Shown: positions 36,171 through 44,660 of the stretch, one piece after another
How the letters are laid out: each line of letters opens with the position of its first letter
How positions within the stretch are numbered: position 1 is the first letter of the stretch
Assembly: GCA_948469815.1 (NCBI GenBank)
Contig: CAOKMR010000001.1
Location: 6,710 to 70,709, forward strand
Direction of reading: 5' to 3'
DNA from: an uncultured Clostridiaceae bacterium
Lineage (GTDB): Bacteria > Bacillota > Clostridia > TANB77 > CAG-508
DNA length: 64,000 nt
Notes under the pieces: generated by a model
Seen by the model: the letters and a program-made list of their open reading frames with translations, nothing else
Databases searched by the model: none
What the model was told of the DNA's origin: nothing
Program-made: the position numbers and the translations under genes

Positions 36171-36440
36171 AAAAATAAAAAGAGGTGTATAAGTTAATAA
36201 ATACATCTCTTTTATGTTAAATATGAGAAAGGATGATTCAAGTGGAATATAATAAGAGATATATATCATATATCATAACAATGTATGGTACTTTAGAAAC
36301 AAATAAAGAGTCTATAGAAGAAATGAAAAAAGAATTGGAACAAACTAATATACAATATTTGATAAATAAAGTAGATAGCAAATTTGTAGAATTAAATGAA
36401 GATGAACTGATAAGCAAATTTAGAGATATGGAGGATTGAA

Positions 36441-36908
36441 ATGAATAGAAAAGATAAGAATCTTTTTGGTAATTTTGACTTGATTTTACATTCTGTAACT
36501 AAAGAAGAGATAATAAAACAGGATATTAAAAGAATTAATGAATATATAAACAAATTGAGAAGCGACTTGGTGAATTCTTGTGGTAAAATGATGATTACGT
36601 TTGATGGTTATGATAATGATACAAGAGAAATATATGAAATAGAAGAAATAAGAAAATATATAAGCAAATTATTTAATCAAAATAAGGATTTATTCTATTA
36701 TATTACTACAATAGAGCAAAATAACAAATTAATACTTACATGTTTAAGTAATTTTAGACAAATAAAACTAGAAAACTGTGATATTGTTACTTTAGAAATT
36801 GAAACGGAAGTATCTTTAAAAAAACAAATTATTCAAGGCGTTTTATCATGTGCAAATAATAACATCGAGCATACAAACAAAGTATTAGAAAATTTATTTA
36901 ATAAATAA
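36441..36908 (+). CDS. Hypothetical protein
   Basis: 155 aa, coupled to neighbours at 36233-36439 and 36908-37444. Confidence 0.25.
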   Translation: MNRKDKNLFGNFDLILHSVTKEEIIKQDIKRINEYINKLRSDLVNSCGKMMITFDGYDNDTREIYEIEEIRKYISKLFNQNKDLFYYITTIEQNNKLILTCLSNFRQIKLENCDIVTLEIETEVSLKKQIIQGVLSCANNNIEHTNKVLENLFNK

Positions 36909-37444
36909 TGGAGGTAAATATGTTAAAAGAAAGATATATAAAATATAAATATGAAAAGGAATTTGCAGAGCATTTTAAAGATAATTGTGATTGTGATTTA
37001 ACAGATGGAGGAAAAGGAAGTTGCTTTTATGGGCAATATTTAGAAAAATCAATAGATGCAGAAGAGTTTCTAAAGGCAATAGGAGATGAATATTATGATT
37101 TACAATATGGTACATTTATAAGAACTATTACAGATGATGTTGCAGTTGTTATAGGAGTTATAAAAATTGCAGGTGTAATATATTTAAAATTAGATAGAGA
37201 AGTTATACTTGATAAAAAGGATATAAGTAAAAAATCTAATCTACTTCCTTGTGATAAAATAAGGACACATTCAAATATATTAAAAGAATTAGTACAGATT
37301 GGAGATATTGCAAATGGAAATCAAATTATTGATATAAAAGACGGAATACTATTCTATGGACATTGGGGGAATGAGCATATTATAGGAGAAGTAAAAGAAT
37401 TACTCACACGAAATAACTATGATAGTAAGGTAGTATTAAGTTAA
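36908..37444 (+). CDS. Hypothetical protein
   Basis: 178 aa. Followed by a hairpin with a T-run (37501-37530). Confidence 0.25.
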   Translation: MEVNMLKERYIKYKYEKEFAEHFKDNCDCDLTDGGKGSCFYGQYLEKSIDAEEFLKAIGDEYYDLQYGTFIRTITDDVAVVIGVIKIAGVIYLKLDREVILDKKDISKKSNLLPCDKIRTHSNILKELVQIGDIANGNQIIDIKDGILFYGHWGNEHIIGEVKELLTRNNYDSKVVLS

Positions 37445-37533
37445 AGTATATATTGTATTCTGATCGATTAAAGTTGAAGATAGAATTAACTATAATAAAT
37501 CCCCTAGGCAAATGACCAGGGGATTTTTTCTTA

Positions 37534-39378
37534 GTGCGACGGGCATGTCGTTTAGTTAATCGGTGAAAGTCCGTAGTGGAGGTATACATCGCTAACCACA
37601 TAGTGAAACACAAGCGTTCCATCGTGAGGTGAGACGTGGAGGAAGTGTGTAGCAAAATCTTGGCTCAATGTACAAAAACTTGATATTAAGGCTTGATAAG
37701 AGGGCAAGGCTACTTGTGAAGTCAAAACCCAAAAGATGTGCGTAACCTTACCAAGTAAATCAAGTGAGTAAAAGAGGAAAATTAAACGACTTACCCCGTG
37801 AGGTCTTGCGGACATTAGTAATAGTGGTCGGAAAAGGTTCATCGCAAGAAGTCAGCAGATACCATAGTAGGAAAATTTTTTTTTGAAGGGTTGAACAATT
37901 TGTAGTGTTTCAAACACCAAAATCAGGGGCGAATAATAGTTAGAATGTGTTAATGAGGAGAGTATAGGCGTATCCTAGAGAGTTACTCAAAATCAATAAT
38001 TTATTCGTCATCGAGAAAGGAGAAGGAGAAACAAGCATGGAACTTTTAGAACAAATCTTAGCAAAAGAAAATCTTAACCAAGCATACGAAAAAGTAAAGG
38101 CAAACAAAGGAGTAGCAGGAGTGGACGGAATAACAGTATATGAGGTAGACGAATATATAAAAGAAAACAAAGAAAAACTGTTAAGCCAAATACGTAAAAG
38201 AAAGTATAAGCCACAGCCAGTAAAAAGAGTACAAATACCAAAAGAAAATGGCAAGAAGAGAAATCTAGGAATACCAACAGTATTTGATAGAATAATACAA
38301 CAAGCAATGGTGCAAGTATTAAGTCCAATATTTGAAAAGCAGTTCAGCGATAATAGTTATGGATTTAGACCTAAGAGGAGCTGTGAACAAGCTGTAATAA
38401 AAGCATTAGAATATCTAAATGACGGTTATGAATGGATAGTAGATATAGACCTAGAGAAGTTTTTCGACACAGTTGACCAAGATAGACTAATCAATATCAT
38501 AATGAGAACAATAAAAGATGGAGATGTAGTATCATTGATAAGAAAATACCTAAGTGCAGGAGTAATGGACAAAGGAATAGCTAAAGCAACAGAAAAAGGA
38601 ACACCCCAAGGAGGAAACCTAAGTCCACTGTTATCAAATATAATGTTAAATGAACTAGATAAAGAATTGGAAGCACGTGGCTTGCAGTTCGTTCGTTATG
38701 CAGATGACTGTATCGTAATGGTTAAGAGTGAGAAAGCAGCGAACCGAGTGTTAAGTTCAATAACGAAATTTATTGAAAAGAAACTAGGTTTGAAAGTAAA
38801 TGCAGAAAAGAGTAAAGTAACAAGACCAACACAAACAAAATATTTAAGCTTTAGTTTTTGGAAAGATACAAAGGGAAGATGGAAACCAAAACCACATATA
38901 AAAGCATATCAAAAATTAAAAAGGAAACTAAAAGCATTAACTAAAAGAAATTGGAGCATAAGCCTAGATAATAGGATAAAGCAAATCAATTACTTAGTTA
39001 GAGGTTGGGTAAATTACTTTAGAATTGCAAATATGAAAAATGCCATAGAAGAAATAGACAAACATTTAAGGACACGAATAAGAGTAATAATCTGGAAACA
39101 ATGGAAAAAGCCACAAAGAAAAGAGAAAGCATTAAAGCAACTAGGAGTAAAACCAGATATTGCATATAACCTAGCACATACAGGAAAAGGATATCAATTA
39201 GTAGCAAAAACAGATTGGCTAAAGTTTGCAATAAATAATGATAGGCTAAGAAAAAGAGGTCTGATATTTCTATCAGACCAATATGCTAAAGTACATGTTG
39301 AAATATAAATTGAACCGCCCATTGCCGAACGGCACGATGTGGTGGTGTGAGAGGGAATAAATAAAATAATTATTTATT
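37534..39378 (+). mobile_element. Group II intron (class-C-like, bacterial) inserted immediately downstream of a rho-independent terminator
   Basis: 5' GUGCGAC at 37534 directly after the hairpin ccccTAGG…CCAGGGG+TTTTTT. Internal RT/maturase ORF. 3' region carries D5/D6-like hairpins ending about 39378, just before the convergent HU stop. Boundaries are approximate. Confidence 0.65.
38037..39308 (+). CDS. Group II intron reverse transcriptase/maturase
   Basis: 423 aa. RT motifs through YADDCIVMV, followed by a maturase (X) domain. Confidence 0.85.
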   Translation: MELLEQILAKENLNQAYEKVKANKGVAGVDGITVYEVDEYIKENKEKLLSQIRKRKYKPQPVKRVQIPKENGKKRNLGIPTVFDRIIQQAMVQVLSPIFEKQFSDNSYGFRPKRSCEQAVIKALEYLNDGYEWIVDIDLEKFFDTVDQDRLINIIMRTIKDGDVVSLIRKYLSAGVMDKGIAKATEKGTPQGGNLSPLLSNIMLNELDKELEARGLQFVRYADDCIVMVKSEKAANRVLSSITKFIEKKLGLKVNAEKSKVTRPTQTKYLSFSFWKDTKGRWKPKPHIKAYQKLKRKLKALTKRNWSISLDNRIKQINYLVRGWVNYFRIANMKNAIEEIDKHLRTRIRVIIWKQWKKPQRKEKALKQLGVKPDIAYNLAHTGKGYQLVAKTDWLKFAINNDRLRKRGLIFLSDQYAKVHVEI

Positions 39379-39380
39379 CT

Positions 39381-39662
39381 CTACTCGATTTTATTTACAG
39401 CATCTTTCAATGCTTTACCAGGCTTGAATGTTGGGAGTGTTGATGCAGGTATTTTTATCTCTTCTTTAGTTCTAGGATTAATTCCTTTCATTGCAGCTCT
39501 TTTACGAGTTTGAAAAGAACCAAACCCAACTAATTTAATTTTTCCTTTATTCTTTAATACTTCCGAAATTATTTCAATGATAGCATCTAAATTAGTTTCA
39601 GAAGATTTTTTAGATGTACCAACCTTTTCGGCAATAGTTGTTACTAATTCACTTTTATTCAT
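39381..39662 (-). CDS. hup: HU/IHF-family DNA-binding protein
   Basis: 93 aa. MNKSELV…FGSFQTRKRAA…GINPRT…I.IPA is the canonical HU signature. Confidence 0.85.
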   Translation of the reverse strand: MNKSELVTTIAEKVGTSKKSSETNLDAIIEIISEVLKNKGKIKLVGFGSFQTRKRAAMKGINPRTKEEIKIPASTLPTFKPGKALKDAVNKIE

Positions 39663-39814
39663 TACAATATAACCTCCTTTCGCAAATTATATTGCAAATA
39701 ATGTATCAAAGTTATAGGAAAATGTCAAGAAATGTCGATAAATACATTGTTAAAAAAGGAAAAATGTGATATTATTTAAATATAAAATAGTAATTGTAAA
39801 AAGGAAATTTATTT

Positions 39815-40525
39815 GTGGAAAGTTTAGAAATTGATAAAAATAGTTTTTATACTAGTAAAGCCAACTATACAGAATATATGTATTGTTGGCAGTATGCTAA
39901 ATGGAATGTTGAAAAAATTTCAAAAAGTAATAATGCAAATGGTTATATTGTTCAAATGGTAAAAATGAAAATAGAAAACGATAACGATGTAATCATAAAA
40001 CAATATTTTGAGGCATGGAAAGTTGAGAATGGGAAGTGTTGTGAAGTAATTGATAATTCCCAATATAATGACCTATTTTTAATTGGAAGAGATATATATG
40101 ATTCTTTTCATGAATTAAAGATGTCAATTGGAAAGTCTGGTCAAAGTTGTTTTGAAGGTGTTGTTTTTTGGATAGATAAGTGTGATGAATTATATAAAGA
40201 TATTGATAAATGGGAAAAATCCGAAGTAGAAGAAGCAAAGGAACTTAAATCTAAAAAGTATTCTGAAAAATTAGAAAATCAATTTAGAAAGAGACGATAT
40301 TTTAACAGAAAACCATTTGTTCATAAGTGGGATATGACAAAAGAAGATGACATCTTTAGGATTACATGTAAATATTTGTACGAAATGTGCGATAATTACT
40401 CTGATAAATTAAAAAAGATGAAACTAGAAAATTATATTATAGATTTATTTTCAGAAGAACATTATAATATAAAACAAAAGGTTGTAGAGAAAATGAAAAA
40501 ACAACTTCAAATTGATGATATTTAA
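39815..40525 (+). CDS. Hypothetical protein
   Basis: 236 aa, GTG start. No recognised motif. Confidence 0.3.
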   Translation: MESLEIDKNSFYTSKANYTEYMYCWQYAKWNVEKISKSNNANGYIVQMVKMKIENDNDVIIKQYFEAWKVENGKCCEVIDNSQYNDLFLIGRDIYDSFHELKMSIGKSGQSCFEGVVFWIDKCDELYKDIDKWEKSEVEEAKELKSKKYSEKLENQFRKRRYFNRKPFVHKWDMTKEDDIFRITCKYLYEMCDNYSDKLKKMKLENYIIDLFSEEHYNIKQKVVEKMKKQLQIDDI

Positions 40526-40567
40526 TATGTAAACATTTATACAAATTATAAGTATAGAGGTGAAATT

Positions 40568-41446
40568 ATGAAGTGTTTAGAAACATGTGAAAGAGAAATA
40601 AACAATTTGCAAAACGATATTGAAAAATATTTAAACGAAGAAAATAATGAAATAAAAATATTTAAAGCTATAATAGATATAGTATATACTGAAAATCCTT
40701 TAAAAATTAATTTTTTTGCTTTAGGTATAAGAGAACTTATTAGAATATTTTTACAGCGTAATAGTAGTGATTCTGATATAAAAAAATGTACATGGTATGA
40801 AGATTATATTGAATATGATGCTGAAAACAGAGAAATAATTACAAGAAAACAAAGAATGCTATATTCAATTTATGGTGGATTAAATTTAAAAGATATAAAA
40901 CAAAAGTTGAATATAGATATAGATGATAAAATAAAGCAATTATTGATTATAATTAATAAATTAAGCAAGTTTACGCATATAGAATCTATCACATCTAATA
41001 ATGAATTTATAATGCAAGAAATAAAAGAGATTTTAAAAACATTTAAAGAATTTCTAGAAAAATTATTTAATTTTAGAGAAGAGCTTTCTTATGACTATGA
41101 AAAGTTTATTTCTGAATTAATAACAGATAAGTTTGCAAATGATGTTATAGAAGATCTTGATATAAAAGCTACTCATTATGAAGATGCATGTTTCTATATT
41201 GAGGATATAAAAATATTATCAATCGATTCAAGTAATATACATTTATCTGTGAGTGGAGACACAAGTGCTACTCTTCAATATGGTTCTAATTCTGATAATA
41301 AAATTGGTGATGGGATTAGAATTTATAAAAATTATTTAACTAACGTTAATATTTCTATTGCAACTGATAAAGCATTTGATACAAATTTTTTAAATGCAAA
41401 AATAGAAGATGTAAAGATAATAGATGATAGAGAAGACATAATGTGA
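40568..41446 (+). CDS. Hypothetical protein
   Basis: 292 aa. No recognised motif. Confidence 0.3.
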   Translation: MKCLETCEREINNLQNDIEKYLNEENNEIKIFKAIIDIVYTENPLKINFFALGIRELIRIFLQRNSSDSDIKKCTWYEDYIEYDAENREIITRKQRMLYSIYGGLNLKDIKQKLNIDIDDKIKQLLIIINKLSKFTHIESITSNNEFIMQEIKEILKTFKEFLEKLFNFREELSYDYEKFISELITDKFANDVIEDLDIKATHYEDACFYIEDIKILSIDSSNIHLSVSGDTSATLQYGSNSDNKIGDGIRIYKNYLTNVNISIATDKAFDTNFLNAKIEDVKIIDDREDIM

Positions 41447-43727: not shown

Positions 43728-44660
43728 ATGGGTAAAGAAGAATTAAATAAAAATAGAACACAAAAAGAATTGATGTCAGAATTTGAAAGATATTTAGAGG
43801 AAAATTATCCAAACACTGAAGACAAAAATACACAAAAGGCATATTTAAGTGATGTTAATATGTTTTATAAATACTTTGAAGAAAATTTTAGTGAAATAAT
43901 AATTTCCTTTTCTAGAGCTGATATTATAGAATATAAAAATTATATGTTAAAAGAAAAGGGTTATAAGGCTACAACAATTAATAGAAAATTAGCATCATTG
44001 TCTGTATATGAAAATTTTTTAATAGAAAAAGGAATAAAAGACGTAAAATCAATAAAAGAACAAGACTTTTATAAAATAACTGTACCTTACATTACAGCTG
44101 ATATGTTACCAAGAAAAGCAATGAAAAAAGTAGAACTATTGGCTGGAAAAACTAATATTAGAGATCAAGTAATATTAGTTTTTATACATGAAGGGGGATT
44201 AAGAGTCTCTGAAGTAATAAATATACAGTTAGAAAGAGATGTTAATTTAGAAATGCGTAAAATTACTATATGGGGAAAAGGAAATAGAATTAGAGAAATT
44301 ATTATAACTAATGCTATGTTTGATATTTTAGAGGAATATTTACCTATAAGGGATAAACAATTGGCTGGAAGAGAAAATAAGTACTTAATTATAAGTAACA
44401 AATCAGTAACTACAGGAAAAAGAATTGATAGGAGTATGGTTAATAAAATGTTAGAAAAGTATTGTAAAAAAGTTAATGAAAATAGTATTAATCCACATAT
44501 TTTTAGACATGACTTTGCTACAAATAAATATGAAGAGGGGTATACTGATATGATGTTAAAAAAGTCATTAGGTCAAACGTCTAATGCCACAGATAGATAT
44601 ATACACCCAGGTGGTGAGAAAATCCAAAATGAAATACGACAAAATTCGACAAAAAAATAA
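43728..44660 (+). CDS. Tyrosine recombinase (phage integrase / XerD-like)
   Basis: 310 aa with an N-terminal SAM-like domain. The C-terminal catalytic region includes …RHDFATN… and a tyrosine near the C-terminus (DRYIHPG). Confidence 0.7.
   Translation: MGKEELNKNRTQKELMSEFERYLEENYPNTEDKNTQKAYLSDVNMFYKYFEENFSEIIISFSRADIIEYKNYMLKEKGYKATTINRKLASLSVYENFLIEKGIKDVKSIKEQDFYKITVPYITADMLPRKAMKKVELLAGKTNIRDQVILVFIHEGGLRVSEVINIQLERDVNLEMRKITIWGKGNRIREIIITNAMFDILEEYLPIRDKQLAGRENKYLIISNKSVTTGKRIDRSMVNKMLEKYCKKVNENSINPHIFRHDFATNKYEEGYTDMMLKKSLGQTSNATDRYIHPGGEKIQNEIRQNSTKK

Follow-up and report, generated by a model that had tools for sequence, protein, structure and literature searches.

The segment 37534-39389 of the window, the 64-kb stretch of contig CAOKMR010000001.1 analysed here, is with high confidence a full-length and apparently functional group IIC intron retroelement, reverse-spliced downstream of a bidirectional terminator stem-loop that is common to a plus-strand gene array and the convergent hup gene, within an integrative and conjugative element (ICE) of low-GC Clostridia. 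Comparison of the occupied allele with four intron-less alleles of the same element (L084-L087) places the intron at exactly 37534-39389 on the plus strand (1,856 nt, GUGCGAC...CUACUCGAU). These alleles have the gene order of the window, lack the reverse transcriptase (RT) gene, encode a 91-aa HU protein and are 96-100% identical to the occupied allele in the flanks; their exon junction reads ...TTTTTTCTTA/TTTATTTACAGC without an intron, the empty site being ...CCAGGGGATTTTTTCTTA/TTTATTTACAGC... (slash, point of insertion). No target-site duplication is present relative to the empty alleles, and the boundaries cannot be slid by even one base because the junction bases differ (A not T, G not T).

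The intron ends have the GUGYG and AY form of group II introns, with GUGCG at 37534 (GUGCGAC at 37534-37540) and ...GAU at 39389. Scanning one genome per species provided 80 loci with related RTs (L001-L080), 31 of which are gut Clostridia metagenome-assembled genomes (MAGs) with 77-95% amino acid identity to the window RT, the others being mostly Streptococcus copies (~60% identity) with some Bacillus-like and Lachnospiraceae copies. In BLAST comparisons with these loci, homology begins at 37534 and ceases at 39389-39392, and every copy printed (>40 independent copies) ends in ...CTCTACTCGAT, with the next base mostly T. The initial annotation of this region, made from the letters alone, had placed the 5' end at GUGCGAC, 37534, which is confirmed by sequence, copy homology and empty sites, but had put the 3' end at about 39378, 11 nt short of the true end at 39389 given by the >40 copies and the four empty-site alleles. 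It had also described an intron that fills the intergenic space and ends 2-3 nt short of the hup stop codon; instead, ~86 nt of native spacer (37445-37530) are kept upstream, the insertion lies at the hup-proximal edge and the intron itself supplies the last two codons and the stop of hup.

The intron is single-copy within the window and has a GC content of 34.8%, compared with 24.2% in its flanks and 25.9% in the window as a whole. The same intron is present in a further allele, L081, with 3 mismatches to the window copy. This 3-nt difference, together with near-identical intron-less elements, indicates on sequence grounds that the intron was gained recently. The suggestion in the initial annotation that the intron may be mobile is supported by the intact RT and by the presence/absence polymorphism between near-identical elements. 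A megablast search of 36400-40600 against deposited phages and plasmids gave no match and no close relative.

Class IIC ribozymes are recognised by a CGC triad in domain V (D5), a D5 distal stem 2 bp shorter, an 11-nt epsilon' bulge with AGGAA, an EBS3 (exon-binding site 3) as in IIB, a pairing of 3-4 bp between intron-binding site 1 (IBS1) and EBS1, and no EBS2 (Toor et al. 2006, PMC1702495), while the class C intron-encoded protein (IEP) is without an endonuclease (En) domain (review, PMC4424553). In the window intron, AGGAA is located at 37640-37644, inside 11 unpaired model columns of RF02001, and the domain V triad CGC (39316-39318) is aligned to model A4 G5 C6, replacing AGC. Domain V also has a 2-nt CG bulge, a GAAC loop and a distal stem of three G-C pairs and a U-A pair, which is shortened, with four columns deleted in the alignment to RF00029 (Intron_gpII). 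Domains V and VI together (39309-39389) give a minimum free energy (MFE) fold of -32.8 kcal/mol, in which the bulged A at 39383 is the presumed branch point (domain coordinates in Table 1), and the stem-loop of the 5' exon lies where it would be expected to stand in for IBS2. Folding of the first 367 nt by MFE gave no useful structure (z = -0.41); the search for EBS1 therefore relied on covariation with the exon ends, with the Eubacterium rectale structure as a guide. Weak Rfam matches to miRNA, sRNA and lncRNA families in the region lie far under the respective gathering scores and are due to chance.

The IEP, which is encoded in domain IV and preceded by GGAG 8 nt upstream of its ATG, scores 440 bits against TIGR04416 (cutoff 300), 160 bits against RVT_1 and 71 bits against GIIM, and comprises RT and maturase (X/thumb) domains followed by a short C-terminal DNA-binding region; a domain search of its 423 residues gave no HNH/En domain match. 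Among solved structures, its residues 2-418 align to the E. rectale IIC IEP (PDB 7uim_D) with 513 bits, followed by the GsI-IIC RT (401 bits) and 5HHJ (391 bits), both IIC, compared with 162 bits for LtrA (IIA) and 147 bits for 6ME0 (IIB). Judged by the scores of its solved relatives and the lack of an En domain match, the IEP belongs to class C. The initial annotation was therefore right to describe the RT open reading frame (ORF) at 38037-39308, with YADD, as intact, and its assignment of the intron to class IIC agrees with the CGC triad, the short D5 stem, AGGAA, the En-less IEP and the hairpin target, all of which are present.

The target of the insertion is a hairpin with a core stem at 37501-37522 (CCCCT[A]GG / CCAGGGG; CCCCTAGG...CCAGGGG), flanked by an A-tract at 37498-37500 and by an A followed by T6 at 37524-37529 and CTTA at 37530-37533. 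It lies between two stop codons, that of the 178-aa gene at the end of the plus-strand array and the native one of hup, and has the layout of a bidirectional terminator, AAA-CCCCTAGG...CCAGGGG-ATTTTTT, between convergent genes. The RNA MFE is -14.4 kcal/mol on the plus strand and -16.4 kcal/mol on the hup (minus) strand, and a consensus terminator scan flags the hairpin on the minus strand (37526..37497). The intron starts 4 nt past the T-run and 11 nt past the last stem G, a spacing of 7 nt if measured from the extended stem with A-U pairs counted, or of 11 nt from the G-C core.

A hairpin precedes the insertion at all 49 distinct sites of related copies, with a stem end 0-9 nt from the insertion point and, in most cases, A- and T-tracts. 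The 49 distinct 5' flanks (45 nt) have a mean MFE of -15.3 kcal/mol, compared with -5.1 kcal/mol in 600 random 45-mers from the same loci (Mann-Whitney p = 1e-27); the window flank itself folds at -14.4 kcal/mol (random 45-mers, -5.1 +/- 3.6). Beyond the hairpin, the 49 target sites have no extended sequence in common. The initial annotation had placed the 5' end 3 nt past a hairpin and T6 run, of which the hairpin and T6 stand while the spacing after the T-run is 4 nt. Its view that a terminator stem is the typical target of class C is borne out at 49/49 insertion sites, and its stronger statement, that terminator stems rather than exon sequence set the target, holds for the stems but has to be qualified, as the lineage clearly also makes use of a short pairing between EBS1 and IBS1. 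As a separate observation, the hairpin of the occupied allele (37501-37522) is 3 nt (TAG) shorter than that of all four empty alleles (L084-L087, CCCCTAG[TAG]GCAAATGACCAGGGG), with a plus-strand MFE of -14.4 in the occupied and -12.4 in the empty form.

Alignment of the first 260 nt of 50 copies revealed a hypervariable 4-nt block at intron nt 181-184, which differs in nearly every close copy, tracks its own site and is often exactly complementary, in antiparallel orientation, to the four exon bases before the intron (block/exon TCCC/GGGA, ACAA/TTGT, TAAG/CTTA and CATC/GATG). Across 47 junctions, 3.32 of the four positions of this block (EBS1) pair with exon positions -1 to -4, compared with 1.94 when the exons are permuted; the observed value was reached in 0 of 5,000 permutations, and the signal is lost when the register is slid. 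The +1 base of the 3' exon (IBS3) is T in 36/40 copies, opposite a conserved GUAAAU that reads GTAAAT in all aligned copies save L021 and L027, which have GTAGAT (L011 is misaligned and four copies are gapped). The window EBS1 matches in position that of the E. rectale IIC structure, in which EBS1 A184-G187 pairs with CTTT and EBS3 A231 pairs with dT36 at +1 (PMC10190682). As judged from these alignments, the lineage uses a 4-nt EBS1-IBS1 pairing and an A-T EBS3-IBS3 pair. In the window copy, IBS3 is the expected T, but IBS1 pairs at only 2/4 positions, which fits a relaxed, structure-driven (ectopic) insertion and predicts that 5' splicing is inefficient or inaccurate at this site.

One more contig at the same site, L082 (ENA ERZ14864788), has an identical hup-side flank and an intron that is 95.7% identical to the window copy, with the EBS1 sequence ATTT (0/4 pairs with CTTA), and ends inside the intron. 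Its interpretation as a second, independent invasion was dropped as unsafe given the contig end within the intron and the 0/4 EBS1 pairs; L082 is either a real second variant at the site or a chimeric metagenome assembly across repeated intron copies, with the latter more likely.

Known IIC biology (PMC1702495, PMC4424553, PMC10190682, PMC7306698) suggests how such an element would operate here. The intron lies behind the array terminator, so that the array transcript must read through the terminator to transcribe it, and transcription would occur only by such read-through. The IEP would assist splicing, with a predicted ligated-exon junction of ...GAUUUUUUCUUA/UUUAUUUACAG; the ribonucleoprotein would recognise the DNA stem-loop together with IBS1/IBS3 and reverse-splice into DNA, and cDNA synthesis would be primed at replication forks because the IEP is without an endonuclease.

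Several points weigh against the interpretation of the segment as a functional IIC intron. Splicing, termination and mobility are deduced from sequence features, and every sequence used for comparison comes from a metagenome assembly, where repeated introns may be joined wrongly, as appears to have happened in L082. That EBS2 is absent is suggested indirectly, by the shortness of domain I (~265 nt) and by the fact that RF02001, a compact model, is matched over its full length. In the covariance-model search proposed in the initial annotation, the D1-D4 models match, but Intron_gpII (D5/D6) reaches 22.6 bits against a gathering score of 40 over 39313-39382, which leaves the 3' end unfixed by the model; this low score is explained by the IIC-specific D5. 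Finally, the window EBS1, UUGU, forms only 2/4 pairs with its IBS1, CUUA (one Watson-Crick, one wobble), which places the junction among the six worst of the 47, and this copy may splice badly or have drifted after insertion.

The last point, like the presence of a single copy in the window, speaks for a stranded copy, that is, an ectopic insertion with a misfitting EBS1 that is no longer mobile and is kept only because it is harmless behind a terminator, an interpretation which we consider unlikely. Mobility to new sites depends on the EBS1 match at those sites rather than at the resident one, and IIC splicing tolerates weak IBS1 pairing with help from the stem-loop (PMC1702495). In addition, the ORF has its full length and can be aligned from one end to the other to an active IIC IEP, the D5, D6 and D1 motifs are intact, and the 3-nt difference from L081 alongside near-identical elements without the intron argues for a recent gain. 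Alternatively, the intron-less alleles could have arisen by precise intron loss, for example through recombination with cDNA of the spliced RNA. Presence and absence alone give no direction, and the occupied allele differs from all four empty ones by the 3-nt hairpin indel; nevertheless, precise loss is improbable, as essentially all close HU homologues have 91 aa ending in ...NK, which makes the 91-aa form ancestral, the base composition of the intron is foreign, and relatives at 49 unrelated sites are the signature of an invading element.

That the segment is instead an intron of class IIA or IIB, or a different kind of RT element, for example a defence-associated RT (DRT) or retron, which lies near a terminator by chance and homes via a long exon-binding sequence, is highly improbable. 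Weaker RT matches to retron and DRT models (NCBIfam, PADLOC) and the below-threshold Rfam D5/D6 model would be compatible with such an element, but the retron and DRT models all score far below their own cutoffs whereas TIGR04416 clearly exceeds its own (440 against 300 bits), and ribozyme domains are found on both sides of the ORF. The IIA/IIB classification, which the initial annotation had named as contrary to its proposal, was looked at specifically: IIC IEPs score 2.5-3.5 times as high as IIA/IIB IEPs, and the CGC triad, the AGGAA bulge, the absence of an En domain and the 49 distinct targets that have a hairpin but no extended sequence in common all argue for class IIC.

The insertion of the IIC intron also altered the convergent gene. 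The HU protein matches Bac_DNA_binding (PF00216) with 108 bits, its residues 1-90 covering profile positions 1-90/90. Native hup encodes 91 aa in 39390-39662 plus a TAA that is the complement of 37531-37533 (TTA, part of IBS1), and the intron splits it between Lys91 and this TAA. Read on the hup strand, the sequence is AAA GAT GCT GTA AAT AAA TAA (KDAVNK and stop) in the empty allele and ...AAT AAA ATC GAG TAG (KDAVNKIE and stop) in the occupied one, such that the last 9 nt of the intron (39381-39389), in antisense, supply codons 92-93 (Ile, Glu) and the TAG stop and form the overlap between the intron and the annotated hup ORF; the new TAG is the complement of 39381-39383, and its T complements the bulged A of D6. 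A protein search retrieved a 91-aa sequence (P0001, encoded on L084-L087) that is 100% identical to the window HU and ends in AVNK, and essentially all other close HU homologues likewise comprise 91 residues with a terminal NK. The 93-aa form is encoded on 11 contigs, and where sequence past hup is available (L081-L083) it is intron sequence.

The original hup terminator, the hairpin on the minus strand, is now 1.86 kb away. Because a hup transcript would contain the intron in antisense orientation, splicing cannot remove it, and hup transcripts must end inside the antisense intron or read through it. The antisense of the intron 3' end (D6; 39330-39389, minus strand) contains a stop codon in each of the three frames in the space of six codons, and a convergent ORF interrupted by this intron family would therefore be extended by at most five residues.

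The region that a hup transcript would enter contains a second hairpin, at 39258-39279, within the last 50 nt of the IEP ORF and 102 nt past the new hup stop. The consensus scan reports it as a minus-strand terminator-like site (39279-39258), GGTCTGATAGAAATATCAGACC then TCTTTTTCTT. Its 9-bp stem is conserved throughout the Clostridia clade; between subclades, two adjacent pairs have changed places (G-C/A-T to A-T/G-C), which entails I-to-V and S-to-L changes in the protein. In the stem alignment, 98.3% of cells are paired, compared with <=41% in slid registers, and 2/9 pairs are changed on both sides, although these compensatory changes amount to essentially one phylogenetic split. The ...KRGL... 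codons of more distant clades (Bacillus-like, Streptococcus, Lachnospiraceae) are also spanned by a strong hairpin, formed by unrelated sequences at slightly shifted positions. Two copies are damaged at or beside this hairpin, L023 in its RT C-terminus by an 18-nt deletion and L025 by the loss of one A from the A-run, which causes a frameshift; both are decaying copies.

It is conceivable, if rather doubtful, that IIC introns of this clade and of related ones carry an antisense-facing intrinsic terminator, consisting of the conserved hairpin and T-run in the final ~100 nt of the IEP ORF, that stops the convergent transcript ~100 nt in where the intron has parted a convergent gene such as hup from its bidirectional terminator, which would be an unrecognised host-sparing adaptation. 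Under a strict rule applied to 64 distinct RT ORFs, 25/34 antisense terminator-like sites fall in the last 120 nt, with <=2 in each of the other bins and 0 on the sense strand in the last bin. G-U pairs that work on the antisense strand only number 45, compared with 21 on the sense strand only, a count that is noisy and not phylogenetically independent. The competing explanation, to which we give about an even chance, is that 39258-39279 is a structural element of the sense RNA, such as a domain IV sub-hairpin with a role in IEP binding, translation control or RNA stability, and that its resemblance to a terminator on the antisense strand arises incidentally from the Arg/Lys codons (AAGAAAAAGA) in front of it. 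The run of As that appears as a T-run in antisense is also part of the codons for the conserved RKR of the LRKRG motif, most copies pair equally well on both strands, and some Streptococcus copies have G-U pairs compatible with the sense strand alone, all of which are consistent with a sense-RNA role; the strand bias of the strict sites (25 against 0 in the last bin) and, with its stated noise, the G-U count point the other way. A sense-RNA role with a coincidental resemblance to a terminator is thus at least as likely as an antisense terminator. No description of an intron-borne antisense terminator was found in a literature search whose coverage of key papers was incomplete. If the antisense terminator is real, it would, together with the stops in all frames, limit the damage to host genes and shield the IEP gene from antisense transcription.

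Table 1 Features of the intron, its insertion site and the host element (window coordinates).
Feature	Position	Strand	Evidence or remark
Aspartate/ornithine carbamoyltransferase family gene	269-1183		marks flanking chromosome at left end of window
VirB4/TraG-like ATPase	4724-6607		ICE-like gene
Type IV secretion system (T4SS) pilin	6608-8152		ICE-like gene
Two SpaA/thioester adhesins	10911-15294		ICE-like genes
T4 coupling protein	18746-19699		ICE-like gene
RDF-like protein	22435-23349		ICE-like gene
178-aa gene, last of long plus-strand array	36908..37444	+	ORF list
Bidirectional intrinsic-terminator-like hairpin	37498..37529	.	fold and consensus scan; putative termination activity
IBS1, 5'-CUUA	37530..37533	+	last 4 nt of 5' exon; empty-site alleles
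Domain I core	37618..37789	+	Rfam group-II-D1D4-3 (RF02001), 113 bits, model 1-170/170
EBS1, 5'-UUGU, intron nt 181-184	37714..37717	+	terminal loop of D1d arm; junction covariation
GUAAAU stretch with presumed EBS3 adenosine	37755..37760	+	alignment of copies; choice of A as EBS3 presumptive
Domain II/III region	37807..37891	+	Rfam group-II-D1D4-1 (RF01998), 44.5 bits, full-length model match
IEP, 423 aa	38037..39308	+	TIGR04416, RVT_1 and GIIM, PDB 7uim_D
Conserved 9-bp hairpin in 3' end of RT ORF (codons GLIFLSD)	39258..39279	.	consensus scan, conservation; function hypothetical
Domain V	39314..39346	+	below-threshold Rfam Intron_gpII alignment and MFE fold
Domain VI	39348..39387	+	MFE fold; bulged A 39383, 6 nt before 3' splice site
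hup (HU family), 93 aa as now read	39381..39662	-	Pfam Bac_DNA_binding; codon-level translation
IBS3, first 3'-exon base, T	39390	+	empty site
Tyrosine recombinase	43728-44660		ICE-like gene
Large serine recombinase	61294-62940		ICE-like gene

The host of the intron is an ICE-like element (2281-62940) of a low-GC Clostridia genome, which in addition to the genes in Table 1 encodes a helix-turn-helix (HTH) protein, a GH25 lysozyme, an ECF-like sigma factor and a peptidoglycan hydrolase. The 178-aa protein has no Pfam, NCBIfam or PADLOC match, and an exact look-up found nothing on record; relatives of the two intron-flanking proteins were not found in viral contigs. Elsewhere on the element, a 292-aa protein (40568-41446, plus strand) contains pP_pnuc_1/2 pPIWI-associated nuclease domains and matches the PADLOC Aga_Nuclease model with 179 bits. 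No Argonaute/PIWI ORF is visible nearby, the neighbours being a 236-aa protein without a family match and small HTH genes, and the 292-aa protein may be an orphan or re-purposed defence nuclease on a conjugative element.

Taken as a whole, the window intron behaves as known for the most abundant bacterial intron class and adds an undescribed member, located on a conjugative element, of a gut Clostridia clade; for this intron, occupied and empty alleles with near-identical flanks provide base-exact boundaries. The 47 junctions clearly demonstrate EBS1-IBS1 covariation in this lineage, while single insertions can tolerate 2/4 pairs. The replacement of the hup stop codon is a neat but minor consequence, a natural example of how the supposedly harmless targeting of terminators can change both the C-terminus encoded by a convergent gene and the way in which its 3' end is formed. 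The antisense terminator-like hairpin at the ORF end is the sole part with some potential novelty and offers a testable idea on coexistence with convergent transcription.

Among known systems, the best-scoring solved IEP is MarathonRT of the E. rectale IIC intron (PDB 7UIM/7UIN; Chung et al. 2022, PMC10190682). Likened through published structure positions, the two RNAs share a 4-nt EBS1 loop at the same intron position (~nt 181-187), an EBS3 A that pairs with T at +1 and a target composed of a stem-loop and short spacer, but differ in EBS1/IBS1, which is AAAG/CTTT in E. rectale and UUGU/CUUA in the window intron. With B.h.I1 of Bacillus halodurans, the reference IIC ribozyme (PMC1702495), the window intron shares the CGC triad, the short D5 distal stem, the AGGAA epsilon' bulge, an IBS1-EBS1 pairing of 3-4 bp, a terminator stem-loop at the place of IBS2 and a splice site 3-11 nt past the stem-loop, the spacing here being 7-11 nt depending on the definition of the stem. 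Unlike B.h.I1, the window copy is inserted between the last sense codon and the stop of a convergent ORF, whose C-terminus it alters. GsI-IIC of Geobacillus stearothermophilus (PDB 6AR1) and the Streptococcus class C introns (L035-L080) likewise have En-less IEPs, a 3' end of ...CUACUCGAU and a hairpin-plus-T-run target, but belong to other clades, whereas the gut Clostridia clade of the window intron is known only from MAGs.

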